A DNA stretch of 64,000 bases from positions 7,370 to 71,369 of the forward strand of contig CAXBYZ010000001.1 of NCBI GenBank assembly GCA_963980215.1, written 5' to 3'. The notes under the pieces were generated by a model. It saw nothing but the letters and a program-made list of their open reading frames with translations. It ran no database searches and was not told the origin of the DNA. Below, piece by piece: positions 5,342-63,418 of the stretch. The position numbers and the translations under genes were made by a program. Source of the DNA: an uncultured bacterium. GTDB lineage: Bacteria; Patescibacteriota; Microgenomatia; UBA1400; CG1-02-47-37. The stretch's first letter is position 1; each line of letters opens with the position of its first letter.

Positions 5342-5494
5342 ATTTTTAGCTGTAAGGTTTTGTTGCCGTTCCACTCGTTTTTATCGATAGTGTAGATAAT
5401 ATCTATTTTTTGACCTGATTTTAACTTGGTGGCTTTGGCGCCGAGATTAAAAGCGATGGCGGGCAGGTTGTCCTGCAGGGAGAGTCCTTGCAGG
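5342..5494. repeat. 153-bp perfect direct repeat, copy A (orphan copy of the recJ 3' coding end)
   Basis: Identical over 153 nt to 6056-6208 by direct comparison. About 12 nt further left shows degraded similarity (9/12). Confidence 0.9.
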
Positions 5495-6043: not shown

Positions 6044-7710
6044 GTAATAGATTTGATTTTTAGCTGTAAGGTTTTGTTGCCGTTCCACTCGTTTTTATCG
6101 ATAGTGTAGATAATATCTATTTTTTGACCTGATTTTAACTTGGTGGCTTTGGCGCCGAGATTAAAAGCGATGGCGGGCAGGTTGTCCTGCAGGGAGAGTC
6201 CTTGCAGGGTGAGTTTTAAGTGTTTTTGGTCTTGGCCAACGGTACGAAAATCTACAAGCTCAACCTTTTTACTAATAAAGAGGGGTGGTTTGTTGCCAAA
6301 ACCGCTTGGTTCTAGTTTTTCTAGTTCTTCAAATAATTCCCAGTTAATATCTGAAAGGTTTAGCTGACAGTCTATGTTTATGGTTGGGGTAAGTTGGTCT
6401 TTGGTAAGTTCTTTTTCTGCTAAATCTTCTAGCCTCTTTTGAACTTCTGGTAAGTTAACGTTTTTAACAGTAAAGCCGGCGGCCATTTGGTGACCACCGT
6501 GTTCTAAGATTATGTCTTCCATGCTTCTAATAGCTTTTAAAACATTAAAACCTTTGATGGATCTAGCTGAGGCTTTTGAAAATGTTTCTCCCATGGAGAC
6601 GACAAAGGCTGGTTTGTAGTATTTTTCTACTAAACGGCTGGCAACTAGACCAACAATACCTTCATGGTAAGACTGGTGTTGAACAAAATTTAGTTTCTTC
6701 TTTGATTGGTTGTGCTCGATTATTTGATTGTTGGCATGAAAGTACATCTTCATGGTTTTGTCTTGTCTTTCTAGGTTGGTTTGGTTTAGGTTGTTGGCTA
6801 GTTTGTTGGCTTTTTCTAGACTGGTGGTGCAGAGAAGTCTTAGAGAATCTAGAGCGTGTTCGAGTCTGGCCATGGCGTTTAACCTGGGACCAATCATATA
6901 GCCAATTTGGTAAGTGGCGATGGTTGGTAACTCTATCTTTGAAACTGAAGCGAGGGCATTTAAACCAATTCTTTTGGATTGTTTTAGTGACTCTAGGCCA
7001 AATTTAACTAAGGAGCGATTGGCTTTGGTAAGAGGAACCATGTCTGCGATAGTACCAATGGCAACTAGTTCTAGTGAAGTTTCTAGGTCTTTTAACTCTC
7101 TTGCTAAAAACCAAGAAACACCAACACCAGCTAACTTTGTGGTGTGAACAACACTAACTACTTTTGGGTAGTAGGGTTTTTTGTTTTTTACTTTTGGTTG
7201 GTGGTGGTCGGTGATGATGACATCGATACCCTTTTTGGCGGCATACTCAGAGCCTTTGAAAGCTGAGATGCCGTTATCTACAGTGATGATTAACTGACAG
7301 GGTCCATCCTTGTCAGAGAGAATTTGGTCGATGCCATCTGGAGATAGACCACGGATAGTGTCGCCTCTTCCGGGAATGTAGGGCATGACCTTGGCTTTTA
7401 AAGCGTGAAGAGATTCCCATAAGACTGCTGTAGAAGTGATGCCGTCGGCATCGTAGTCTCCGTAGATATAGATTAGCTCTTTATTCTTGATGGCTTTTTT
7501 GATACGAGTGACGGCTTTTTTTAGTTGAACTTTGTTAATACCCACATCCTCTGGTTTAATTTTTTCTGGATCGATAGGGTTTAGAAAATCTTTTTGGTCT
7601 GCTTTGGTTTTTATGCCTCGATTAATTAAGATAGCAGAGATAATTTTATCTCGTCTTTTTTTGAGATCAGTATCTTTTATTTTTGATTTGATTTTTATTA
7701 TCTTATCCAT
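6040..7710 (-). CDS. recJ: single-stranded-DNA-specific exonuclease RecJ
   Basis: DHH motifs (IYIYGDYDADGITSTAVL; VIITDHHQP) and DHHA1-like region. Start taken as ATG for MDKIIKIK (7710); the track ORF extends to 7836 with alternative starts 7725/7836. Confidence 0.85.
   Translation of the reverse strand: MDKIIKIKSKIKDTDLKKRRDKIISAILINRGIKTKADQKDFLNPIDPEKIKPEDVGINKVQLKKAVTRIKKAIKNKELIYIYGDYDADGITSTAVLWESLHALKAKVMPYIPGRGDTIRGLSPDGIDQILSDKDGPCQLIITVDNGISAFKGSEYAAKKGIDVIITDHHQPKVKNKKPYYPKVVSVVHTTKLAGVGVSWFLARELKDLETSLELVAIGTIADMVPLTKANRSLVKFGLESLKQSKRIGLNALASVSKIELPTIATYQIGYMIGPRLNAMARLEHALDSLRLLCTTSLEKANKLANNLNQTNLERQDKTMKMYFHANNQIIEHNQSKKKLNFVQHQSYHEGIVGLVASRLVEKYYKPAFVVSMGETFSKASARSIKGFNVLKAIRSMEDIILEHGGHQMAAGFTVKNVNLPEVQKRLEDLAEKELTKDQLTPTINIDCQLNLSDINWELFEELEKLEPSGFGNKPPLFISKKVELVDFRTVGQDQKHLKLTLQGLSLQDNLPAIAFNLGAKATKLKSGQKIDIIYTIDKNEWNGNKTLQLKIKSIT
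6056..6208. repeat. 153-bp perfect direct repeat, copy B (functional 3' end of recJ)
   Basis: Identical to 5342-5494. Encodes the last ~51 codons of RecJ (minus the final 4 codons). Confidence 0.9.
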
Positions 7711-7730: not shown

Positions 7731-9074
7731 ATGGAAGTTTTGCTACCGAAACTAGTCGTAAAAGTGATGGGGGTGCTGGAAAAGGCCGGATTTGAAGTAT
7801 ATGTGGTAGGAGGAGCGGTGAGAGATTTGCTTTCAAAAAAGAAAGTTTATGATTGGGATTTTACTACTAATGCAAAGCCTGAAGAAATTACTAAACTTTT
7901 TGAAGATAGTTTTTATGATAATGCTTTTGGAACAGTTGGAGTAGCTGAAAAACATTTGGGTGGTGATGGTGATGGTGTTTTTGAGATAACTACTTTTAGA
8001 AGTGAGGGAAAGTATAGTGATAAACGCCGACCAGATAAAGTGGTTTGGGGGAAGAGTTTGGATGAAGATTTAAAGAGAAGAGATTTTACTATTAATGCGA
8101 TGGCGATTGATAAGAATCTAAAGATTATTGATCCATTTGATGGCCAGAAAGACTTGAAAGCTAAGATTGTAAAGGCGGTGGGTGCAGCTGATGTACGATT
8201 TAATGAGGATGCATTAAGAATGATGAGAGCTATTCGAATTGCTGCTCAACTAGGATTTATTATTGAAGAAAAAACCTTGAAAGCTATTAGCAAGAACTCA
8301 AAACTGATTAATAAAATTGCACTTGAGAGAGTGAGAGATGAGTTTTTAAAGATTATTGCTTCTGACTACCCAAAAGATGGGGTTTTGATGTTGTTTAGTA
8401 GTGGTTTACTTGAACTTATTATTCCTGAGTTGATTGAGATGCGTGGAGTTGATCAAGCTGGGCACCACACAAAAGATGTGTGGAACCATAGTTTGGATGC
8501 ACTTGAAGCCTGTCCATCTAGTAATGTGATTGTGCGGCTTGCTACCCTACTTCATGATGTAGGTAAGCCAAAAGCCAATATGGATCGAGGGGTGGGTAAA
8601 GAGATTACTTTTTATAACCATGAGGTGATTGGAGCCAGAATGGTGAAGAAGATTGCCAGAAGACTTAAGATGAGCAAAAAACAGATTGATTTACTCTGGC
8701 TACTGGTACGCTGGCATATGTTTGCATATGATAGCCACATGACAGATAAATCAATTCGAAGATTTATTAAAAGAGTGGGGGTAGAGAATATTTCTAAAAT
8801 GATGGATTTGAGGGTTGGTGATCGAGTCGGGGGTGGAACTAAGGCAACTAGCTGGAGACTGGAAGAGTTGAAAAAAAGAATTGTGGAAGTTCAAAAAACG
8901 CCAATGCAAGTGAAAGACTTGAAAGTATCTGGCCATGATGTGATGGAGATTTTAGAGATTAAGGGTGGGAAAAAAGTGGGTGAGGTTTTAAATATCTTAT
9001 TTGAGGAAGTGATGGAAGATAGCGAGAAAAATGAGAGGGAGTACTTGTTAAAGAGGGTTAAGGAAGTTAAATAA
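7731..9074 (+). CDS. cca: CCA-adding tRNA nucleotidyltransferase (class II NTase head + HD domain)
   Basis: GGAVRDLL head motif; HD domain (HHTKDVWNHSLD...LLHDVGKP). Alternative start at 7767 (MGVLEKAGFEVYVVGG). Confidence 0.85.
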   Translation: MEVLLPKLVVKVMGVLEKAGFEVYVVGGAVRDLLSKKKVYDWDFTTNAKPEEITKLFEDSFYDNAFGTVGVAEKHLGGDGDGVFEITTFRSEGKYSDKRRPDKVVWGKSLDEDLKRRDFTINAMAIDKNLKIIDPFDGQKDLKAKIVKAVGAADVRFNEDALRMMRAIRIAAQLGFIIEEKTLKAISKNSKLINKIALERVRDEFLKIIASDYPKDGVLMLFSSGLLELIIPELIEMRGVDQAGHHTKDVWNHSLDALEACPSSNVIVRLATLLHDVGKPKANMDRGVGKEITFYNHEVIGARMVKKIARRLKMSKKQIDLLWLLVRWHMFAYDSHMTDKSIRRFIKRVGVENISKMMDLRVGDRVGGGTKATSWRLEELKKRIVEVQKTPMQVKDLKVSGHDVMEILEIKGGKKVGEVLNILFEEVMEDSEKNEREYLLKRVKEVK

Positions 9075-22684: not shown

Positions 22685-22776
22685 ATTATATTTTCACCTC
22701 CTTAGATTTATTCTTTAATTATGGGAAGAATAGTATAGAAAGTCAATTGAGTAGACTTTGTTTGGTATAATACAGA

Positions 22777-23117
22777 GGCTAGGAAGTGTGGTGATGCCCT
22801 GACTTTATGTCAGGGAGGAAAGTCCAGACTGCAGAAAACAGGGTGCCCAACGTAAGTTGGGGCTTGAGTAGACTTAGCTACCCAAGCCAGTGAAGCCACA
22901 GAGACGAGTTCTTTGTAAGTTAATTACTTATAAAAGAAGTGAAACGTCCTAAACCACAGTTGGTTTAGGAACTACTTTAACCTTTGGTTGAAGAGTGGTA
23001 ATTCTCCTCGCAGCAACTTCCGATCGATCCATTATGAGGATGTTTTCCCTAGGATCAAAGATTGAAGGCATTAGATAGATATCACCTTAAACAGAATCTG
23101 GCTTACTGCTTCCTAGC
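22777..23117 (+). ncRNA. rnpB: RNase P RNA (bacterial type)
   Basis: P4 halves GGAGGAAAGTCCAGAC (22815-22830) and AACAGAATCTGGCTTAC (23090-23106). P1 pairing GCTAGGAAG (22778-22786) with CTTCCTAGC (23109-23117). TATAAT at 22766-22771; T-run after the 3' end. Confidence 0.7.
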
Positions 23118-29871: not shown

Positions 29872-30147
29872 TTATTTTTTAACTAATCTTTTGAGGGTTT
29901 TGCCGACCAGGAAGCGGACAACGCGGTGAGATTTGATGATTAGATCTTCTCCTGTTTGAGGATTGCGTCCTTTTTTGTCTTTAACTTTACTAACTTTGAA
30001 AGTGCCAAAACCTGAAAGAACAATTTTTTCACCTTTGTTGATTTGTCTAACAATTTCGTCTAGGAAAGCGTCGACACATTCGTGAGCGGCTTTTTTTGTA
30101 AGGTGAGATTTTTTGGCAACTATCTCTATCAATTCTGCTTTAGTCAT
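29872..30147 (-). CDS. hup: DNA-binding protein HU
   Basis: 91 aa: MTKAELIEIVA...GFGTFKVSKVKDKKGRNPQTGE. Confidence 0.85.
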   Translation of the reverse strand: MTKAELIEIVAKKSHLTKKAAHECVDAFLDEIVRQINKGEKIVLSGFGTFKVSKVKDKKGRNPQTGEDLIIKSHRVVRFLVGKTLKRLVKK

Positions 30148-30212: not shown

Positions 30213-31748
30213 TTATGTGGTTGCTTCGGTTTTGGTTTCTCTGGTAACTGATACTTTGATCTGGCCTGGAAAATCTTTGACATCTTCTTTGATTTTATCT
30301 CTGATGTCGTTGGCTAGTTTGGTTGCCCCATCGTCATCTAACTCTTGCGGGTTAGCTATGACTCTAACTTCTCGACCGGCTTGAATAGCAAAAGCTGATT
30401 TAACCCCGTTAAAAGATTTGGCAATGTCTTCTAGCTCTGTCATTCTTTGAATGTAACCATCGTGATCTTCATATCTTGCCCCTGGCCTTGAACCGGAGAT
30501 AGCATCTGAGATGTAGACCAAGACTGATTCTGTCGAGGAAAATGGCTTGTCTTCATGGTGTTCGGCTACACAGTCGATAACTGCCTGAGGAAGCCGATGT
30601 TTCTTTAGAAACTTAACTCCAAGCTCAACGTGAGTACCTTCTTCATCGTTGATAACTTTACCAATGTCGTGAAGAAGACAAGCTAACCTGACAATGTTGA
30701 CATCTGCACCAACCTCGTGAGCTAACTTGATACCAATTTTAGTCTCTTCTAGGGTGTGAGTGATCATACTTTGACCATAAGAGAAGCGGTATTTGAAGCG
30801 ACCAAGCATGTCGATAACGGGAATTGGGAGGTTATAGACTTTGACAGCATGACAAAGCTTTTCACCTTCTTGGTGCATTAATCTTTCTAGATCTTTTTTG
30901 ACTCTTTGATAAACCTCTTCAATACGAGAAGGCTGGATTCTGCCGTCGGCTAAAAGTTTTTCTAGAGTTACTCTAGCGATTTCTCTTCTGATCGAGTCAA
31001 AGCAAGAAAGCCTGATAACTCCGGCTTCATCTAGATCGACCTCGACACCAGTAACTTTTTCAAAGGTTCTAATATTTCTACCTTCCCTACCAATAACCCG
31101 ACCCTTTATCTCTTCATCTTTGACTTTGATGAGTGAGACGGTGTACTCGGCTACATAGTCAGTGGCTCCGTGACGCATAGCTTCAACTAAAAGTTCTTTT
31201 GATTTGACTTCAGCCTCAGCTTTGGCTTTTTTCTCTGCTCCAGTAATGATCTCGGCAATATCTCTGGTCATTCTATTTTCGTAGGCCTTGATAATTAATT
31301 CTTGAGCTTCTTCTTTTTTAAGCTTGGCGATTTTTTCTAGTTTTTCAAGTTGTTTTTTCTTGGTTGCGTCAATACTTTCAAGTTTTTTGGTTATAACTTG
31401 TTCCTGACTGGAAACTGATTTTTCTCGGTGTTCAATGGCTCCTAGTTTGTGTTCTAGTTCAGCTCGTTGCCTTAAAGCTTCTTCTTTTAGTTTGCCAGCA
31501 TCTTGAACCATTCTTTGAGCATTGGCGTCGGCTTGACGCTTGATGTCAAAAGCTTTGTCTTTGGCTTCTATGATAAGCTCTCTAGCTTTGTTTTCTATCT
31601 CGGCTAAGTTGATGGTTGATTGAGGAGTTGGTTTTGCGTTTGGAGTTTTAGTTTTGGGTGGTTTTTGAGGTTTTGCTTGAGGCTTACCGGCTGATTTTTG
31701 AGCGGGTTGATTACTAACAATTTTGGTAAAGCGTGAAAAAAATGACAT
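30213..31748 (-). CDS. rny: ribonuclease Y
   Basis: Coiled-coil N-half, KH domain (GREGRNIRTFEKVTGV), HD domain (LLHDIGK). Confidence 0.85.
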   Translation of the reverse strand: MSFFSRFTKIVSNQPAQKSAGKPQAKPQKPPKTKTPNAKPTPQSTINLAEIENKARELIIEAKDKAFDIKRQADANAQRMVQDAGKLKEEALRQRAELEHKLGAIEHREKSVSSQEQVITKKLESIDATKKKQLEKLEKIAKLKKEEAQELIIKAYENRMTRDIAEIITGAEKKAKAEAEVKSKELLVEAMRHGATDYVAEYTVSLIKVKDEEIKGRVIGREGRNIRTFEKVTGVEVDLDEAGVIRLSCFDSIRREIARVTLEKLLADGRIQPSRIEEVYQRVKKDLERLMHQEGEKLCHAVKVYNLPIPVIDMLGRFKYRFSYGQSMITHTLEETKIGIKLAHEVGADVNIVRLACLLHDIGKVINDEEGTHVELGVKFLKKHRLPQAVIDCVAEHHEDKPFSSTESVLVYISDAISGSRPGARYEDHDGYIQRMTELEDIAKSFNGVKSAFAIQAGREVRVIANPQELDDDGATKLANDIRDKIKEDVKDFPGQIKVSVTRETKTEATT

Positions 31749-37638: not shown

Positions 37639-38502
37639 ATGACTAAAGATAAGTACTCGGCTACTTGGGTTTCTCATTCTTCGATTAGTGATTGGTTGGC
37701 TTGTCCTCGAGCTTACTTTTTGAAAAATGTGTATAAAGATCCAAAAACTGGGCATAAAATTTCTTTAATGAGTCCACCACTAGCTTTGGGGTCGGCGGTA
37801 CATGAAGTGGTGGAGGGGTTGTCTGTGTTGCCAACCGATAAAAGATTTGATGAGTCGTTGATTAAAAAATTTGATAAAGTCTGGGGGAAATTTAGTGGTA
37901 AGAAGGGTGGGTTTGGGGATGAAGCTGAGGAGGGCCGGTATAAAGAGAGAGGAAAAAAGATGTTGAGGCGAGTGATGAAGTATCCGGGGCCTTTGAAAAA
38001 TTTGGCGGTGAAGATTCAGATGGATTTGCCTAATTATTGGCTAAGTGAAGAAGATAATATAATTCTTTGTGGAAAGATTGATTGGCTTGAATATTTGAAA
38101 GACGAGGACATGGTCCATATTATTGACTTTAAAACCGGAAAAAGGGCGGAGCAAAAGGGTTCGTTGCAACTACCGATTTATTATTTATTGGTAACTAATA
38201 CTCAAAAACGGGCGGTAAAAAAGGCAAGTTATTGGCATATTGATTTGGCCGATGAGCCGATGGAACAAAAGTTACCGGATATTAAAAAAGCTAATGAGAA
38301 GATTTTAAAAATTGCTAAGGAGATAAAGCTGGCGAGAACTTTGGAGAGGTTTAAGTGCCCGAATGATGGCTGTCGAGCTTGTAAACCAATGGAGAAAATT
38401 ATTAAAGGCGAAGGTGAGTTTGTGGGGGTGGATGAGATTCGGCGGGATATTTATATTCTACCTAGAACGAAAGAGGATAAGCCTGAGGGTAAGATATTGT
38501 GA
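37639..38502 (+). CDS. PD-(D/E)XK nuclease, Cas4/RecB-like, with 4-Cys cluster
   Basis: N-terminal Cys (WLACPRAYF), IIDFKTGKR (D...K) core, C-terminal FKCPNDGCRACKP Cys triad. Confidence 0.6.
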   Translation: MTKDKYSATWVSHSSISDWLACPRAYFLKNVYKDPKTGHKISLMSPPLALGSAVHEVVEGLSVLPTDKRFDESLIKKFDKVWGKFSGKKGGFGDEAEEGRYKERGKKMLRRVMKYPGPLKNLAVKIQMDLPNYWLSEEDNIILCGKIDWLEYLKDEDMVHIIDFKTGKRAEQKGSLQLPIYYLLVTNTQKRAVKKASYWHIDLADEPMEQKLPDIKKANEKILKIAKEIKLARTLERFKCPNDGCRACKPMEKIIKGEGEFVGVDEIRRDIYILPRTKEDKPEGKIL

Positions 38503-38513
38503 GTGAGTAAAAT

Positions 38514-39581
38514 ATGAAGAAAGTGAAATCAAAACAAATTGACGATGGTTTGAGAGAAATCATACTCTATAGAACAGCTAGTGATCAGGTTAGGGTGGAG
38601 GTTTTTTTAATCAATGAAACTTTGTGGCTGACTCAAGAGAGGATAGCTAAAGTTTTTGGGGTTCAAAGGCCGGCCATTACCAAGCATTTAAGAAATATAT
38701 TTGCTAGTGGTGAGTTAGACGAAAAAGGGGTTAGTTCCATTTTGGAACACACCACTAAGCATGGGGCTATCAAGGGAAAATCTCAGGTTGGCAAAGTTAA
38801 GTATTATAATCTTGATGTGATTATTGCCGTAGGATATAGGGTTAATAGTAAGCGTGCGACTCAATTTAGAATTTGGGCTACTAGTGTATTAAAAGAGTAT
38901 GTGGTTAAGGGTTTTGCTATGGATGATAATAGGCTTAAAGATCCTAAATATTTTTTTGGTAAAGATTACTTTGAGGAGCAGTTAGCCAGAATTAGAGATA
39001 TTCGCTCGAGCGAGCGTAGGTTTTATCAAAAAATTACTGATATCTACGCCGAGTGTAGTGCGGATTATGATTCAGATGAAGAAATAACTAGAGAATTTTT
39101 TGCCACGGTGCAAAATAAGCTTCACTTTGCCGTCTCTGGGCAAACAGCTGCCGAGATTATTAATGCTAGAGTGTCTAGTAGAAAACCCAATATGGGATTA
39201 ACTACTTGGAAAAATTCCCCTAAAGGTAAAGTTAGAGAGGCTGATGTGGAAATTGCTAAAAATTATTTAAGTGAAAAGGAATTAGACCATCTCAATAGAA
39301 TCGTATCTATGTATCTCGATTATGCTGAGCTTCAAGCAAAAAGGGGGCGAGTCATGTATATGAAGGATTGGGTAAAAAAACTTGATGCTTTTTTACATTT
39401 TAATGATCAGGATATTTTGCAAGGAAAAGGTGAGGTCAGCCATGAAGTGGCAGTGGCGCTGGCAAAAAAAGAGTATAAGGCTTTTTGTATTAAACAAGAT
39501 AAAAATTACTTGTCAGATTTTGATAAGTTTAGTGGACAATATTTGGAGCAGCTGGATAAGAAAACTAATGACAAACTGTAA
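38514..39581 (+). CDS. RhuM-family protein (virulence protein RhuM family)
   Basis: Strong similarity to the RhuM pattern from memory: IILYRT...VRVEVFLINETLWLTQERIAKVF...YYNLDVIIAVGYRVNSKRATQFRIWAT...LKEY..KGF..DD.RLK...YF.E...RIRDIRSSERRFYQKITDIYA...DY. Confidence 0.65.
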   Translation: MKKVKSKQIDDGLREIILYRTASDQVRVEVFLINETLWLTQERIAKVFGVQRPAITKHLRNIFASGELDEKGVSSILEHTTKHGAIKGKSQVGKVKYYNLDVIIAVGYRVNSKRATQFRIWATSVLKEYVVKGFAMDDNRLKDPKYFFGKDYFEEQLARIRDIRSSERRFYQKITDIYAECSADYDSDEEITREFFATVQNKLHFAVSGQTAAEIINARVSSRKPNMGLTTWKNSPKGKVREADVEIAKNYLSEKELDHLNRIVSMYLDYAELQAKRGRVMYMKDWVKKLDAFLHFNDQDILQGKGEVSHEVAVALAKKEYKAFCIKQDKNYLSDFDKFSGQYLEQLDKKTNDKL

Positions 39582-39876
39582 AGATAAAGCTTTAAAGTGG
39601 GTGGGTAAAATTCCCAAAGGGAAAGTGGCAACTTATGGGCAAATTGCTAAGTTGGCGGGAATGAAAGGGGCCAGGCCGGTGGGAAATTGGCTTCATACTC
39701 ACGGACAACCAATCACCATAGTTCCCTGCCACCGGGTGGTAAATAGTAAGGGTGGGTTGGCGAAAAATTTTGGAGCCAAAGGGAAGATTCAAACCCAAAA
39801 AAAGCGATTGGAGTCCGAGGGGGTGAAGGTTAAAAACTATAATGTTGATTTGGATAAATTTTTATGGAAGGGGTAG
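39568..39876 (+). CDS. MGMT-family DNA-binding-domain protein (retains the -PCHRV- Cys)
   Basis: 102 aa from ATG 39568 (MTNCKDKALKWVGKIPKGKVATYGQIAKLAG...IVPCHRVV). Overlaps the RhuM end by 14 nt in another frame; the track ORF 39382.. is an upstream alt-start extension. Confidence 0.65.
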   Translation: MTNCKDKALKWVGKIPKGKVATYGQIAKLAGMKGARPVGNWLHTHGQPITIVPCHRVVNSKGGLAKNFGAKGKIQTQKKRLESEGVKVKNYNVDLDKFLWKG

Positions 39877-39902
39877 CCCTACAAGGATAAACCCTGTAGA
39901 TG
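39877..39902. repeat. REP-like element, family B variant (CCCTACAAGGATAAACCCTGTAGATG)
   Basis: CTACA-AGG...CCCTGTAG imperfect inverted repeat with the GTAG/CTAC signature. Confidence 0.5.
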
Positions 39903-39912
39903 AAAATACAAA

Positions 39913-39931
39913 TCACACTCCCGGAGTGTGA
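39913..39931. repeat. REP-like hairpin, family A variant (TCACACTCCCGGAGTGTGA)
   Basis: Contains the CACTCCCGGAGTG core found in the rplM/rplQ insertions. Confidence 0.65.
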
Positions 39932-39936
39932 TTTGG

Positions 39937-40785
39937 CTAACTGTTTTTGCCGTGTTCGAGGACTTCCCCGCGACGGACAGTAAAGTTATAGTTTTTTAAT
40001 AACTTTTGAATTGTCTGGCTAAGGTCTGCTTTGTATTGGTCATTTTTGGCTTGATAGAATTTCTTGATAACTTGATCTTTTTGGCCGGAAAGTTTTTTTA
40101 ATAATCTATCTTTGATGTAGGAGGAAAGATTTAAGTGCTCTAAATAAATTTCGGTGGTGCCGGTGTTTTTGATGGCATCAAAGATACCGGTTAAGTTTCT
40201 GGGATTAGCAGAAAAATGAGGCAGTAAAGGACCAATAAAGGCGTAGGTTTTAATGCCCTCTTGATTTAGTTTTTTTAGAGCTTTTAATCTTAATGATACC
40301 GGCGGGGCGGATTTTTCTAAAAATTGACTAACCTTATCTTTGGTGGTGGTAATGGTTAAACCAACTTCAATTTTTTGGAGTTGGTTGAAAAGATCAATGT
40401 CTCGGGTGACTAAACTGGACTTGGTTAAGATACTGATTTGGCCTGGCCAATTATGCTTTATTAATAACTTTAAAACTCCTCTAGAAAGCTGGTATTTGGT
40501 CTCGATACCTTGGTAGGGGTCAGTAACCGAACTTAAAAAAATGGTTTTGGTTTTATCTTTGATTTTAGCTAATTGCTGGTCTAAAACTTCAAGGAGATTA
40601 ACTTTAACAAAGACGTAGTTACCTCAATCGTTGATACTTTTGCCAACAAAGCGACCCATAAAACTGGCATAACAATAACTACAACCAAAGGCACAACCGG
40701 TATAGGGATTGATGACGTAGTCGGCGTCTGGTAATTTGGAAGCGACTAAAGCAGTTTTGACTTTTATTTCTTTGACGATGTTCAT
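39937..40785 (-). pseudogene. radical SAM protein, SplB/spore-photoproduct-lyase-like, interrupted by one in-frame TGA
   Basis: Manual translation: [65 protein letters not shown]...EHGKNS. CxxxCxxC radical-SAM motif; TGA at complement 40624-40626; no Met downstream of the stop. Not in the ORF track. Confidence 0.6.
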
Positions 40786-40812
40786 TTTGGGTAAATTATA
40801 GCAAAGAAAGTG

Positions 40813-40839
40813 CCTACAGGGTCGGACCCTGAAGGTTGG
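40813..40839. repeat. REP-like element, family B (CCTACAGGGTCGGACCCTGAAGGTTGG)
   Basis: CTAC + palindrome CAGGGTC-G-GACCCTG + GAAGGT. Confidence 0.6.
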
Positions 40840-40885
40840 CTTGACGGTGGAGAGAATTTGGGAGAAGATTTGAATAGTAGGTTTT

Positions 40886-41563
40886 ATGAAGAAACTAAAG
40901 AAAAAGTTGTTGATATCAAAGTGGTTGGGATTAGGATTGCTGATCCCCTCTTTATTGCTGAATGCCTACTTTGTTAGTCGGCCAAAAAGTGATTATGGAA
41001 TTGAAGTGATGGAGGTGTTGGATGGAGATACTTTGCTATTGGAAGGGAAAACTCGATTGAGGTTACGGCAAGTGGATATGCCGGAACTTGATAATTGTTA
41101 TGGACAGGAAGCTAAACAATTATTGGAAGAGATGGTAAAGGGAAAGAAAATTACTATTCAAGATAAAATCTTGGATCAGCGAGGTCGAGCCATGGCTTTG
41201 GTCTATTTGGGAGATAGATTAGTCAACTTGGAGTTATTAAAGAATGGTATGGGACGGTATCATTCGGACAAAACTCGAGCGACTGAGGAGTTGAAAGCGG
41301 CCGGAGCCAAAGCGAAGGCAGAAAATTTGGGAGTGTACTCGCCGGAGTGTTACCAACAAGAAAAAAATTTGGAAAAACCGGAGTGTATTATTAAGGGAAA
41401 TATCGATTTAAATAATCAAAGTATTAAGAGATATTACTACCCGGGTTGTGCCCAGTATAAATTCGTGATTGTGGAGAAAGATAAAGGTGAAGATTGGTTT
41501 TGTAGTGAAGCGGAGGCTGAGGTGGCAGGGTATGTGAAGGCTAAATCCTGCCCGGAGGGATGA
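40886..41563 (+). CDS. secreted staphylococcal-nuclease (SNase/thermonuclease) family nuclease with C-terminal Cys-containing domain
   Basis: Signal/TM N-terminus; SNase motifs [36 protein letters not shown]-terminal KGNI...YYYPGCAQY...[13 protein letters not shown] module. Confidence 0.75.
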
Positions 41564-41581
41564 AGTTTTAAGAGAAGGTTG

Positions 41582-41604
41582 CCTACAAGGTTGGACCCTG
41601 AAGG
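41582..41604. repeat. REP-like element, family B (CCTACAAGGTTGGACCCTGAAGG)
   Basis: Same CTACA-GG...CCCTGAAGG framework as the 40813 copy. Confidence 0.6.
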
Positions 41605-41625
41605 AAAAAGATCATGGTAAAATAG

Positions 41626-42270
41626 ATGAATATGAAAAAGCGAATGTTTTTTGCGTCAAGCATAGATAGAGTGGCAAGTCATATAGTTGGGAAAATTGAA
41701 GGAGGAGTGGATGGACTAAAGTCGGTGTTTATTAATACAGCTGCGGAAGCGGAGGAAGGTGATAAAAGTTGGATGGAAATTGATAGAACTGGATTAAATG
41801 AAGCTGGAATTAAAACTTTTGATTATACTATTACCGGTAAAACTAAAAGTGATTTGGAACGAGATTTAGGTGATTGTGAGTGGATCCATGTAAATGGCGG
41901 AAATGCTTTTTATTTACTACTCCAAATGCGAAAGTCGGGGTTTGACCAATTTATTAAGAGGCAGATTAATAAAGGGGTTATTTATTCCGGTTCAAGTGCT
42001 GGCTCGATAGTGGCGGCACCGGATATTGAAATTACTAAATGTATTGAGAGTAAAGACTTTGAAAAAGAGCTTGGAAGTTTTGAAGGATTAGGATTAGTAG
42101 ATTTTATTACTCTACCTCATTGGGGTGGTGATGATTTTAGAGAATTATATTTAAATCAAAAAATTAAGTCTGCTTATAGAAAAGGGAATAAAATCATTTT
42201 GTTGAATGATGATCAGTATGTGGAAGTGGTGGATGGAAATTATAAAATTGTGGATGTAACGAAAGATTAA
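41626..42270 (+). CDS. peptidase S51 (dipeptidase E-like)
   Basis: GGNAFYLL and GSSAGSIV (Ser nucleophile) motifs. Confidence 0.7.
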   Translation: MNMKKRMFFASSIDRVASHIVGKIEGGVDGLKSVFINTAAEAEEGDKSWMEIDRTGLNEAGIKTFDYTITGKTKSDLERDLGDCEWIHVNGGNAFYLLLQMRKSGFDQFIKRQINKGVIYSGSSAGSIVAAPDIEITKCIESKDFEKELGSFEGLGLVDFITLPHWGGDDFRELYLNQKIKSAYRKGNKIILLNDDQYVEVVDGNYKIVDVTKD

Positions 42271-42273
42271 AAG

Positions 42274-42298
42274 ACCTTCAAGGACTGTCCTTGAAGGT
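42274..42298. repeat. REP-like element, family B, perfect 12-bp-arm palindrome (ACCTTCAAGGAC-T-GTCCTTGAAGGT)
   Basis: Perfect inverted repeat by inspection. Confidence 0.6.
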
Positions 42299-42351
42299 GC
42301 GGGAAAATAGTTTTCTCAAGAGAATTTTATTTGTGAATAAATTATAGGGTT

Positions 42352-42375
42352 ATACAGGGACTGTCCTTGAAGGTG
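42352..42375. repeat. REP-like element, family B (TACAGGGACTGTCCTTGAAGGTGG)
   Basis: CAGGGAC-T-GTCCTTG with one mismatch. Confidence 0.55.
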
Positions 42376-42392
42376 GAGGGCTAGAGTTTTGA

Positions 42393-42791
42393 TTAACGTT
42401 TGGGGGATTGGCGCTTACGCCTGGCGGAGCCACCCATGCCGGCTTTGCGTCGTTCTCTTTTTCGTGGGTCTCTAGTAACTAGACCTTTTTTCTTTAGAAT
42501 TGGTTTGAATTTCTCTTCATTGACTTTGATTAAGGTTCGTGCAATTCCGTGAATAGTGGCATCTAGTTGACTGGATTTGCCTGAACCTAAAACTTTGACG
42601 GTAACGTAGTATTTTTCTAGAACGTTGCAGATTTTGAATGGCTCTAGGAATAAACCTTGGTTGACTGAACCAGGAAAGTACTTACTAACTGGCAGATCAT
42701 TGACTTCGTGGTCACCTTTTCCAGTGAATAGTCTAACTCGAGCGATGGCTCTTTTTCTTCTTCCGGTTGCGTAAACGTATTTTTTTGACAT
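42393..42791 (-). CDS. rpsI: 30S ribosomal protein S9
   Basis: YATGRRKRAIARVRL...GGSARRKRQSPKR. Confidence 0.93.
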   Translation of the reverse strand: MSKKYVYATGRRKRAIARVRLFTGKGDHEVNDLPVSKYFPGSVNQGLFLEPFKICNVLEKYYVTVKVLGSGKSSQLDATIHGIARTLIKVNEEKFKPILKKKGLVTRDPRKRERRKAGMGGSARRKRQSPKR

Positions 42792-47938: not shown

Positions 47939-48503
47939 TTACTGTTTTCATAACATCTTGGTGAATGTCTTCTATGGACTGCTCGCCGTTGATGGTTTTT
48001 AGTAAACCTTCTTCTTTGTAGTACTTTAGAACATCGGCTTCTTGCCTGTGATAGATGTCTAGTCTTGATTTAACTTTTTGTTCGGAGTCGTGAAGAGAGC
48101 CATCTGGGCTTTTTCTGCCTCTTTTTAGCAATCTTTTGACTGACTCTTCATTGCTAACATCGAGGTGAAAAACAAAGTTAACTTTTTTGCCGTACTTGTC
48201 TAGTTTATCAGCTAAAAATAGAGCTTGGGTGTGGTTTCTGGGAAAACCGTCGATAACAAAACCGTCTTTGACGTCATCTTCTTTGAGTCGATATTTCCAG
48301 AGAACAAACATTTCTGAGTCAGCAACGTAGTGACCTAGAGTTAAACAATCTCGACAAACGTCGCCCATGATGCCTTGGTCTTCTTTGGCAAATTTTCTAA
48401 CTAGATCCCCTGAACCCAAGTAAGGAACGCCAATTTTTTCGGCTAACATCTTGGCTTGAGTGGATTTTCCTGAGCCTTCTGGCCCGTAAAAAATTATAAA
48501 CAT
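47922..48503 (-). CDS. adk: adenylate kinase
   Basis: MFIIFYGPEGSGKSTQAKML; LID region. Confidence 0.9.
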   Translation of the reverse strand: MFIIFYGPEGSGKSTQAKMLAEKIGVPYLGSGDLVRKFAKEDQGIMGDVCRDCLTLGHYVADSEMFVLWKYRLKEDDVKDGFVIDGFPRNHTQALFLADKLDKYGKKVNFVFHLDVSNEESVKRLLKRGRKSPDGSLHDSEQKVKSRLDIYHRQEADVLKYYKEEGLLKTINGEQSIEDIHQDVMKTVNEAKV

Positions 48504-48504
48504 T

Positions 48505-49779
48505 TTAGAGGAAACTTTCGTAGTTTCGCATAATTAATTGAGATTCAAAGTTTTTGCTGGTTTCTAGAATAACTGAGACGACGATGAGAATTCCAGTACC
48601 ACCGATAGTCATGGTGGTAATACCGGTGATGTATCTAGCAATAGATGGCAAGATAGCTATCAATCCCAAGAATAGAGCCCCGGCTAGAGTGATTCTATTA
48701 AGAACGTAAGACAGGTAGTCGGCAGTAGGTCGACCTGGCCTAATACCGGGAATAAAGCCTCCGTATTTTTTGATGTCTTCGGCAATTTTATCTGGATTAA
48801 AGGTAACGGCGGTGTAGAAGTAGGTAAAGGCAACTACTAGAAATAAATAAATAATGTGGTAGGGAGCTTTATTGGGGTCAAATAGATCGGTAACTTTAGT
48901 GGCAAAGGAGGCAACGGCTGGGTTGCTAACCCCTGATAAAAATCTACCAACTACTGATGGCATGAGGACTAGAGAAACTGCAAAGATTATAGGAATAACT
49001 CCAGCTTGATTGACTCTTAGAGGTAAGTGAGTTGATTGACCTGGCTGAGTACGACCAGAAACTCTTCTGGCATAGCGAACCTTGATTTGACGAGTGGCTT
49101 CGTTGACGTAGATGATGCCGGAGATAACTAATAAACTTAGGGCAGCAAAAGTGATGATACCAACAAAGTTTAGAGTTTGACTAATTGAAGAGGTTTGGAG
49201 AAGAGAAACAGGGAGACGACCAACGATACCTGCAAAGATAAGTAGAGAGATACCGTTGCCGATACCGTACTCTGTTAGTAACTCCCCGAGCCACATTAGC
49301 AAGACTGTGCCGGCAACCATGGTGACAACGGTGCTAACTGCAAAGAGTGGGTTTGAGATAGAGATAATCTGTTGGTTTTTTAGGAGAGCGACCATGCCAA
49401 TACTTTGAAGTGTGGCTAGGGGAATGGATAATAATCTAGTCCATTGGTTGATTTTTTCTCGACCATACTCGCCTTCTTTGCTGATCTCTTCTAGTTTGGG
49501 GAAGATGATGGTGAGCAGATTAAAGACGATTGAGGCATTAATGTAGGGACCTAAACCTAGAGCCATGATAGAGAAGTTGGCTAGGGTGCCCCCTGAAAAA
49601 ATGTCTAGAAGTCCTAGTAGTTGGTTTGAACCAAAAAGTTGTTTTAAGGCGTTGACATCAACACCTGGAACTGGAATGTGAGCAACAAAACGAAAAATGA
49701 CAAAGATAAAAAATGTTATTAATATCTTTTTTCTTAAATCTTTTATTTTAAATATATTTAAGATTGGTTTTAAGTTCAT
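48505..49779 (-). CDS. secY: preprotein translocase subunit SecY
   Basis: 10-TM SecY; full-length similarity. Confidence 0.92.
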
Positions 49780-62200: not shown

Positions 62201-62224
62201 GAGAAAGAGTGTGTGGATTGTATA

Positions 62225-62248
62225 CCTACAGGGATCATCCTTGAAGGT
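62225..62248. repeat. REP-like element, family B (CCTACAGGGATCATCCTTGAAGGT)
   Basis: CTAC + hairpin CAGGGAT-C-ATCCTTG (one G.T) + AAGGT. Sits 15 nt upstream of the RAYT-2 start. Confidence 0.65.
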
Positions 62249-62412
62249 ATATAATGATTATAGATGCCTCCCAAGAATGCTGTAAAAAAATATAAACCAA
62301 GGTCTATTTATCATGTTTATAATAGAGGTGCTGGAAAACAAAATATTTTTAAAGATGAAGAGGATTACAAAACATTATTAGGTTATTTTAAATTTTATTT
62401 AACTCCCATAGA

Positions 62413-62436
62413 CCTACAGGGATCATCCTTGAAGGT
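62413..62436. repeat. REP-like element, family B, in frame inside the RAYT-2 CDS
   Basis: CCTACAGGGATCATCCTTGAAGGT translated as (D)LQGSSLKV, in frame +2 relative to the repeat. Confidence 0.65.
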
Positions 62437-62716
62437 GGCTCCATCTAGGGTATTAAAGAATCATGCTCTAAAAATTGAGTTGATTGCCTACTGCTTAATG
62501 TCAAATCACTTCCATTTAATTCTCTATCAGGAGGAGATTGATTCAATAAATAGTTTTTTGAGGTCAGTTGCAACTAAGTATGCAATGTATTTTAACCGTA
62601 AATACAAGAGAACTGGTCATTTATTTGAAGGTATATATAAGGCTGTTTTAATGAAAACTGAAGAACAGTTATTACACTTATCTAAATATATTCATAGGAA
62701 TCCTCTAGAGATTTTA

Positions 62717-62740
62717 CCTACAGGGATGATCCTTGAAGGT
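62717..62740. repeat. REP-like element, family B, in frame inside the RAYT-2 CDS
   Basis: CCTACAGGGATGATCCTTGAAGGT translated as PTGMILEG, in frame 0. This differs from the frame of the 62413 copy. Confidence 0.65.
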
Positions 62741-62914
62741 TATAAATATTCGAGTTACGGGAATTATTTAAAACAATTTACGCAAACCTGGGTGAAATCT
62801 GAAAAGGTTATGAGTGTGTTTAACAGAGTTGATCATGAATATTCATCATATAAAGAATTTGTTGAAAAAAATGAAGAAATTATAAAATTTAAAGAAGTTT
62901 TATTGGATTATTAG

Positions 62915-62938
62915 CCTACAAGGATGATCCTTGAAGGT
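62915..62938. repeat. REP-like element, family B
   Basis: CCTACAAGGATGATCCTTGAAGGT. Sits exactly between the RAYT-2 stop (62912-62914) and the rpsG stop (62939-62941). Confidence 0.65.
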
Positions 62939-63418
62939 TTACCACCTAAAGTGGGAGAAGGCTTTGTTGCTCTCGGCAACTTTGTGGGCTTGAGTTTTTC
63001 TATCGATAGCTCCACCTTGATTCTTGAGGGCGTCTGTTAGTTCAGCGGCTAGTTTTTGGTAGAAGTGATGGTACTCTGAGTTTGATCTTTTTCTGGCAGC
63101 ATCGATAATCCAGCGAATAGCTAGGGACTCTCTTCTATCTCCCCTAACAGGCATAGGGACCTGATAAGCGGCTCCGCCGACTCTTCTGGATCTAACTTCC
63201 ATGGTGGGTTTGACGTTATCTATAGCTTGATTTAAAGCAACTATTGGATCTTCTTTGGTTTGGGTTTTTACAATCTCTAGAGCTTTGTAAACATGTTTTT
63301 GGGCGATAGATTTTTTACCACTTAACATGATTTTGTTGATTATTTTAGCTACTAGCCTATTTTCGTAGACTGAATCTGGCTTGGTAACTCTTTTGGTAAC
63401 TTTTCCTGTTCTTGGCAT
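62939..63418 (-). CDS. rpsG: 30S ribosomal protein S7
   Basis: Full-length similarity. Confidence 0.93.
   Translation of the reverse strand: MPRTGKVTKRVTKPDSVYENRLVAKIINKIMLSGKKSIAQKHVYKALEIVKTQTKEDPIVALNQAIDNVKPTMEVRSRRVGGAAYQVPMPVRGDRRESLAIRWIIDAARKRSNSEYHHFYQKLAAELTDALKNQGGAIDRKTQAHKVAESNKAFSHFRW

Follow-up and report, generated by a model that had tools for sequence, protein, structure and literature searches.

A probable young, segregating nonsense allele of a radical SAM gene in an uncultivated Patescibacterium from Saanich Inlet

A radical SAM (rSAM) gene in the 64-kb stretch of DNA analyzed here (the window) runs to 282 sense codons and a TAG stop, except that its codon 54 is TGA. 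Is this TGA a sequencing error, a stop codon that the organism reads through, or the mark of a gene being lost? A preliminary description of the locus, made from the sequence alone, had named all three. We conclude that it is very probably a real, very recent, segregating loss-of-function allele (W54*) of an SPL-family radical SAM gene, neither an error nor a case of recoding. What is found here is what is seen in nascent pseudogenes: a conserved state is disabled, the disabling change recurs in separate samples, and a functional allele is still present.

The interrupted gene

The gene is read from the minus strand, as the complement of 40785..39937 (Table 1). The TGA of codon 54, in the sequence GKSIND*GNYVFVKVN, is the sole internal stop of the frame, and the radical-SAM motif (C31-x3-C35-x2-C38) lies upstream of it. 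Both the otherwise clean 282-codon frame with its CxxxCxxC motif and the lone interruption had been described before, and translation bears them out. With the stop masked, the product matches the Pfam families Radical_SAM (PF04055; 1.1e-11, 45.6 bits against a gathering cutoff of 29.5) and SPL (PF20903; 3.4e-8, 33.2 bits against a gathering cutoff of 27).

The absence of the gene from the open reading frame (ORF) track, which had also been pointed out, has a mechanical cause: the N-terminal ORF encodes just 53 amino acids (aa), and no start codon follows codon 54, as in-frame ATG, GTG, and TTG are all lacking across the remaining 228 codons. Downstream re-initiation was rejected on the same ground, and a C-terminal fragment would in any case be without the Fe-S motif. 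The product actually encoded by the W54* allele, according to the ORF listing, is a 53-aa peptide that keeps the Fe-S cysteines and none of the barrel. With no restart codon past codon 54, no functional enzyme would be made beyond what trace misreading of UGA by tRNA-Trp might supply.

Table 1. Positions in the window of the rSAM gene, its flanking elements, and other features discussed in the text
Feature	Position	Strand	Evidence
SPL-family radical SAM gene, one internal TGA	39937..40785	-	Translation, Pfam, P0001 match, AF2 fold
Codon 54, TGA here versus ancestral TGG (Trp)	40624..40626	-	Homologue alignment, 25 contigs
Truncated 53-aa product plus TGA	40624..40785	-	ORF listing; same 53-aa call on 10 public contigs
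CxxxCxxC [4Fe-4S]/SAM motif, C31, C35, C38	40672..40695	-	Sequence, invariant columns, 4FHC alignment
Codon 62, GTT (Val) here versus GAT (Asp) in P0002 allele	40600..40602	-	Contig alignment
Intrinsic-terminator-like hairpin, 12-bp stem, T-rich tail, 2 nt past TAG	39909..39935	-	Hairpin/terminator scan
TATAAT hexamer, 9 nt upstream of rSAM ATG	40795..40800	-	Read from sequence
23-nt REP-like palindrome downstream of rSAM gene (copy 3)	39878..39900	.	Repeat scan
23-nt REP-like palindrome, divergent intergenic region upstream of rSAM gene (copy 4)	40813..40835	.	Repeat scan
REP-like copies 1 and 2	5472-5494, 6186-6208		
REP-like copies 5 to 7	41582-41604, 42275-42297, 42351-42373		
REP-like copies 8 to 11	62225-62247, 62413-62435, 62717-62739, 62915-62937		
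Cas4-like PD-(D/E)XK nuclease, adjoining RhuM-like gene	37639-38502		
RhuM-family protein, 355 aa	38514-39581	+	PADLOC candidate single-gene system PDC-S05, 470 bits
102-aa Ogt-superfamily DNA-binding domain alone, convergent with rSAM gene	39568-39876	+	TIGR00589, 46.5 bits versus 46.4
SNase-family nuclease, 225 aa, C-terminal "sunset" domain	40886-41563	+	NF051437, 31.5 bits versus cutoff 27
Gap in table-11 gene set, overlap artefact	7837-8750		
Gap in table-11 gene set, 418 bp	22685-23102		

The ancestral codon and past constraint

A search of 5.8 billion proteins returned at least 3524 relatives of the rSAM protein. The top match, P0001, is identical to it across 282 residues except at codon 54, where P0001 has Trp. 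This Trp is invariant in 120 of 120 homologues (the best 120 of at least 3524, at 50 to 100% identity), as are the following Gly55 and the three cysteines C31, C35, and C38, and the closer homologues all read DDWGNYVF in this region. The preliminary description had expected Trp or Gly at the stop, and the alignment settles on Trp, with the invariant Gly next to it. Given an invariant Trp at position 54, the ancestral codon is TGG and the change TGG>TGA, a transition at window position 40624 that reads G>A on the coding strand and C>T on the plus strand.

Before this change the gene was well kept. Against the orthologue P0003 (84% aa and 78% nucleotide identity, with dS about 1.7 and thus near saturation), dN/dS is 0.066 overall, 0.054 for codons 1 to 53 and 0.069 for codons 55 to 282. 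So low a ratio shows strong purifying selection on the gene until recently.

Three alleles in Saanich Inlet

Exact look-ups of P0001, of the 53-aa product, and of a 99% variant, P0002, yielded 24 contigs with DNA, and an exact DNA pattern scan of metagenome contigs added one more (L018). All 25 are 99.7 to 100% identical to the window, gap-free, across up to 20.8 kb. Codon 54 is TGG in 13 of them and TGA in 12, and with codon 62 it distinguishes three alleles: an intact allele with TGG and GTT (Val) on 5 contigs (L001 to L005), the W54* allele with TGA and GTT (Val) on 12 (L006 to L017), and a V62D allele of the P0002 type with TGG and GAT (Asp) on 8 (L018 and L022 to L028). The W54* and V62D single-nucleotide polymorphisms (SNPs) are 23 bp apart, and TGA is combined with Asp62 on none of the 25 contigs. 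Position 62 is mostly V, I, T, or A among homologues, but K, E, S, Q, or N occurs in about 12% and a charged residue in about 8%, so that V62D cannot be called damaging.

The background against which these alleles stand is almost uniform, with 0 to 1 SNPs per 13 to 20 kb. Across window positions 29937 to 50785, just four SNPs occur on two or more contigs: two are synonymous (rny R56R and adk L114L), and the other two, W54* and V62D, both fall in the rSAM gene. Position 40624 is all that separates the TGG contig L002 (12.9 kb) from the window, and two TGA contigs, L011 (20.2 kb of a 92.8-kb contig with 12x coverage) and L012, match the window without a difference. On the 12 TGA contigs the gene shows no added damage, just two synonymous singletons (G55G and L120L). 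Coming as it does without a linked variant, the TGA allele is very young. The earlier suggestion of a recent nonsense pseudogene is thus upheld, the TGG>TGA change being the sole difference over 12.9 kb, with the refinement that W54* is not fixed but one of three segregating alleles.

Sample dates, stations, and depths come from the supplementary tables of Hawley et al. 2017 (PMC5663217), to which we matched the sample identifiers of seven contigs, all from Saanich Inlet at 135 to 200 m between September 2009 and January 2011. The intact allele was found in September 2009 (S3, 200 m) and July 2010 (150 m), the TGA allele in July 2010 (200 m) and August 2010 (135 m), and the V62D allele in September 2009 (S2, 200 m), February 2010 (200 m), and January 2011 (150 m).

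These data bear directly on the first of the three explanations, under which the codon is really TGG and one assembly misreports it as TGA. The sequence is, after all, just one base off a full-length public protein, and some of the supporting contigs are at a low coverage of 2 to 4x. Yet the TGA is present in 12 contigs from different libraries, with three naming styles (JGI names, k141_ names, and NODE_..._cov names) and at least two dated cruises (July and August 2010), and one of them is the 92.8-kb contig at 12x. The flanks of the TGA contigs are 100% identical, which makes the base call reproducible, and recurrence across libraries, cruises, and naming styles marks a real polymorphism. 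An error, which had been proposed at the outset, therefore has a probability close to nil. The contig counts given above are not allele frequencies, since many of the ENA and Logan contigs probably go back to sequencing runs that were assembled more than once.

Some irregularities were seen elsewhere in the retrieved contigs. Outside the rSAM gene, window positions 31583 (rny R56R) and 48162 (adk L114L) are the sole shared SNPs in about 21 kb. The T at 48162 is carried by V62D contigs and also by a single TGA contig, L013, a distribution that hints at recombination or a chimeric assembly. Tight clusters of singleton SNPs at 47964-47985 (L013) and 49131-49141 (L001), in adk and near the ends of contigs that show no other differences, are probably strain-mixture assembly junctions or short recombined tracts.

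Genetic code and readthrough

A TGA that stands in for Trp invites the second explanation, in which the gene is fully functional by way of genetic code 4 or 25, selenocysteine, or programmed readthrough. Some Patescibacteria relatives (Gracilibacteria and Absconditabacteria) do reassign UGA, Trp is the residue that code 4 gives this codon, and public pipelines have called the rSAM gene full-length with code 4 on five contigs. The window itself speaks for the standard code. It has 38.8% G+C and is 90% coding under table 11, and the rSAM locus is the lone internal gene-sized gap in the table-11 gene set, apart from two others listed in Table 1. Eighteen real genes in the window terminate with TGA, including recX, dus, the SNase nuclease gene, and the genes for ribosomal proteins S13, L15, and S5, and 8 of the 18 overlap the next start as ATGA. 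Such stops and overlaps identify UGA as a stop codon in this organism, and an alternative genetic code was rejected on these grounds, in keeping with the earlier view that TGA is a genuine stop elsewhere and that code 4 or 25 is unlikely.

The full-length public calls have a simple origin. Gene calls on the short TGA contigs L006 to L010 (window about 39471 to 42472) were made with genetic code 4, and for this reason those contigs are filed under the full-length Trp54 protein P0001. The same calls extend the neighboring genes, without support, from 225 to 244 aa for the SNase and from 102 to 143 aa for the ogt-like gene, which argues against code 4. As a consequence, contigs that encode a truncated product appear in catalogues with a full-length Trp54 protein.

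Selenocysteine and a structured readthrough signal were likewise rejected. No suppressor tRNA or tRNA-Sec is encoded in the 64-kb window, where tRNA-Pro is the sole tRNA; Rfam gave zero matches across window positions 39400 to 41200 at E <= 1; and an 88-nt stretch that starts just ahead of the UGA shows no more folding than shuffled sequence (z = 0.05). The residue aligned to the UGA is Trp, not Cys, which counts against selenocysteine, and the TGA arose from TGG in a single step that brought no linked change, which leaves no way for a dedicated readthrough signal to have coevolved with it. Taken together, these results make recoding of any kind very improbable, and the programmed readthrough once entertained for this locus gained no support.

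Readthrough need not be programmed to matter. Of the bacterial stop codons UGA is the leakiest, usually through misreading by tRNA-Trp. It is conceivable that near-cognate decoding by tRNA-Trp yields low-level wild-type protein and renders the allele nearly neutral. Because the ancestral residue is Trp, such readthrough would restore the native sequence, and no change has touched the promoter-like hexamer, the terminator, or the 228 codons past the stop. However, a mutation this young would be expected to leave the downstream region intact in any case, and the +4 base after the UGA is G; weak-termination (leaky) contexts for UGA have C at +4, and G is not known to be notably leaky. We consider this hypomorph reading unlikely. 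A further step would be to regard W54* as a tolerated or selected leaky allele, with the coexistence of three alleles for at least 16 months reflecting selection on dosage or activity along the oxygen gradient. We hold this to be distinctly improbable, but if it were true the locus would offer a snapshot of the first step that lets UGA sense codons into a standard-code Patescibacterial genome. Were readthrough efficient, the tryptic peptide SINDWGNYVFVK would be expected at normal abundance from samples with the TGA allele alone.

A probable segregating loss of function

The sequence of events that we favor is short. A single coding-strand G>A turned the TGG of the invariant Trp54 into TGA; under the standard code, translation would stop after 53 residues, with the Fe-S cysteines kept and the partial TIM barrel lost. 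The resulting W54* allele segregates with the intact and V62D alleles in a near-clonal population of Patescibacteria (Microgenomates/Beckwithbacteria-like) that lives deep in Saanich Inlet, in dark and oxygen-deficient water.

From the apparently high frequency of the knockout we infer that the enzyme is currently dispensable there, or that its loss is tolerated or favored. That a knockout should be so common in a gene with a dN/dS of 0.066 is a puzzle, and it may owe its frequency to hitch-hiking in a clonal population rather than to dispensability. Dispensability in dark anoxic water, which is speculation on our part, hitch-hiking, and selection are all candidate causes.

Selection deserves a closer look. 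Inactivation could be favored in part of the habitat, for instance as streamlining or to shed an O2-sensitive Fe-S enzyme, with the alleles being kept by selection. Two of the four nonsingleton SNPs in about 21 kb lie within the rSAM gene and both change the protein, while the two outside are synonymous; the alleles are mutually exclusive, and all three were present across 2009 to 2011; and on the July 2010 cruise the intact allele came from 150 m and the TGA allele from 200 m. This pattern is subject to ascertainment bias, since it was the TGA that drew attention to the window and a search with the rSAM protein that brought up the V62D contigs. With charged residues at position 62 in some homologues, V62D may be neutral, and the counts (2 nonsynonymous plus 0 to 2 synonymous polymorphisms against a divergence of 68 plus 120) are too small for significance. 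Clonal hitch-hiking would give the same pattern. Adaptive or balanced loss thus strikes us as rather unlikely. The narrower idea that W54* and V62D represent parallel inactivation was downgraded in view of the variability of position 62 in homologues and the same ascertainment bias.

As an event, the loss of function is ordinary: a young nonsense allele in a nonessential gene. Like known segregating nonsense polymorphisms and nascent pseudogenes, it consists of a single-base knockout of a constrained gene, coexists with a functional allele, and shows no secondary decay. Nothing in it departs from those cases; only the host, which is uncultivated and has a reduced genome, and the near-clonal background are special, as is the TGG>TGA change itself, the only nonsense mutation that misreading would undo exactly. 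Its value lies in its setting. For a near-clonal Patescibacteria population that is uncultivated and comes from a well-sampled oxygen-minimum-zone time series, the W54* locus provides a clean natural marker, and because the three alleles differ by single bases, their frequencies can be tracked by depth and date. The knockout also suggests that a widespread SPL-like subfamily (at least 3524 relatives) is conditionally dispensable, a small clue to its function.

Relationship to spore photoproduct lyase

The gene had been called SplB-like, resembling the DNA repair photolyase/SplB family. It belongs to the radical SAM superfamily on three counts, namely a PF04055 score above threshold, the invariant C31, C35, and C38, and a modeled partial TIM barrel. 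The AF2 model of the repaired protein (60-sequence alignment) had a pLDDT of 89.7 and a pTM of 0.89 and includes a single predicted C-terminal strand (residues 269 to 276). Foldseek matched it to 41 PDB entries at E <= 0.001, those listed being overwhelmingly radical SAM enzymes. The best matches, ranking well above other radical SAM enzymes, were six spore photoproduct lyase (SPL) entries (4FHC/4FHG etc.; E about 1e-10, TM 0.71 to 0.72, 16 to 17% identity), of which 4FHC had an E of 6e-11 and a TM of 0.72. At the level of sequence the relationship is distant, in that a direct search of P0001 against the PDB gave no match and a profile search reached SPL at an E of 0.017 only.

The comparison with SplB (PF20903/TIGR04070; 4FHC, Geobacillus thermodenitrificans), the enzyme that repairs 5-thyminyl-5,6-dihydrothymine in DNA, shows both likeness and difference. 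The CxxxCxxC motif, the tyrosines flanking the third Cys (Y37 and Y39, aligned to SPL Tyr96 and Tyr98, with Y39 being invariant), and the partial TIM barrel are common to both. The rSAM protein is shorter, at 282 aa versus 340 aa for SplB, and the identity is low (see above). It starts 14 residues before the point aligned to chain residue 101 of the SPL structure (about SPL 73, given a 28-residue tag), and this late start leaves it without the greater part of the SPL N-terminal alpha/beta domain. Its W54-G55 segment lies, in the profile alignment, within an insertion that SPL lacks. SPL Cys140, the H-atom donor essential to the mechanism of the G. thermodenitrificans enzyme (PMC3467042), is replaced by the invariant V87, which stands opposite it in the profile alignment to 4FHC, a register confirmed by the 4FHE C140A sequence. 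The host also differs, being a nonsporulating Patescibacterium. The SplB label is therefore apt for the fold and the superfamily but not for SplB itself, whose NCBIfam model (TIGR04070) gave 34.8 bits against a cutoff of 400.

Three COG1533-type families gave the best profile matches, near full length and with E values of about 1e-40 to 1e-43 (135 to 149 bits): radical SAM mobile pair protein B (TIGR04470, 148.7 bits against a cutoff of 410), the PA0069 family (NF033668, 147 bits against 360), and the Rv2578c family (NF038135, 135.6 bits against 430). Some databases label homologues of the rSAM protein "DNA repair photolyase" or "SPL family radical SAM protein," but every score is far under the curated cutoffs (360 to 430 bits), and no "mobile pair protein A" partner, the mark of TIGR04470, was recognized among the neighbors examined (the SNase gene and the opposite-strand ogt-like gene). 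Judged by sequence profiles and the predicted fold, the gene belongs in the broad SPL-like (COG1533-type) radical SAM group and is not to be called SplB. Named members of its clade, a distinct one, are mostly Patescibacteria and DPANN archaea, although most of the at least 3524 relatives are nameless. The nearest species-representative genome is that of a "Candidatus Beckwithbacteria" metagenome-assembled genome, at 77% aa identity; the genome-contig search gave no same-species genome.

Locus context

The rSAM gene is monocistronic. A terminator-like hairpin follows it closely, and the TATAAT hexamer just upstream of its ATG is a possible -10 box of a nearly leaderless transcript, read from the sequence by eye; a consensus promoter scan upstream of the gene did not report this hexamer and gave no -35 match. 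The gene sits between the ribosomal-protein/rpoA operon and recA, on a small variable island, and the related species that carries P0003 has kept the gene with different neighbors. Its function is not constrained by any operon partner.

The preliminary description was right that the gene is flanked by REPs. The two palindromes on either side of it belong to a family of at least 11 copies in the window with the 23-nt consensus CCTWCARGG-N5-CCYTGWAGG, whose 9-nt core has 15 matches in the window versus 6.95 +/- 2.3 expected by chance. Several copies fall within intergenic gaps or on their borders, and one copy comes after the stop codon of the SNase gene. Four copies fall within window positions 62214 to 62941 at an irregular spacing of 188, 304, and 198 bp and overlap a 216-aa plus-strand ORF (62264-62914) that may be spurious; this stretch looks like a REP-like repeat cluster rather than a gene or a CRISPR array.

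An anti-phage defense role for the rSAM gene was considered and set aside, its PADLOC matches being only 26-bit. Among the neighbors, the 102-aa ogt-like protein could, from its sequence, be an alkyltransferase-like (ATL) protein or a minimal Ogt. NCBIfam places the "sunset" domain (NF051437) of the SNase-family nuclease also on a ribosomal protein L17 variant. Farther off, a Gp49/HTH toxin-antitoxin-like pair lies around 33.5 to 34.2 kb on the minus strand, and together with the RhuM-family and Cas4-like genes it makes this region look like a small variable or defense island beside the ribosomal operon.
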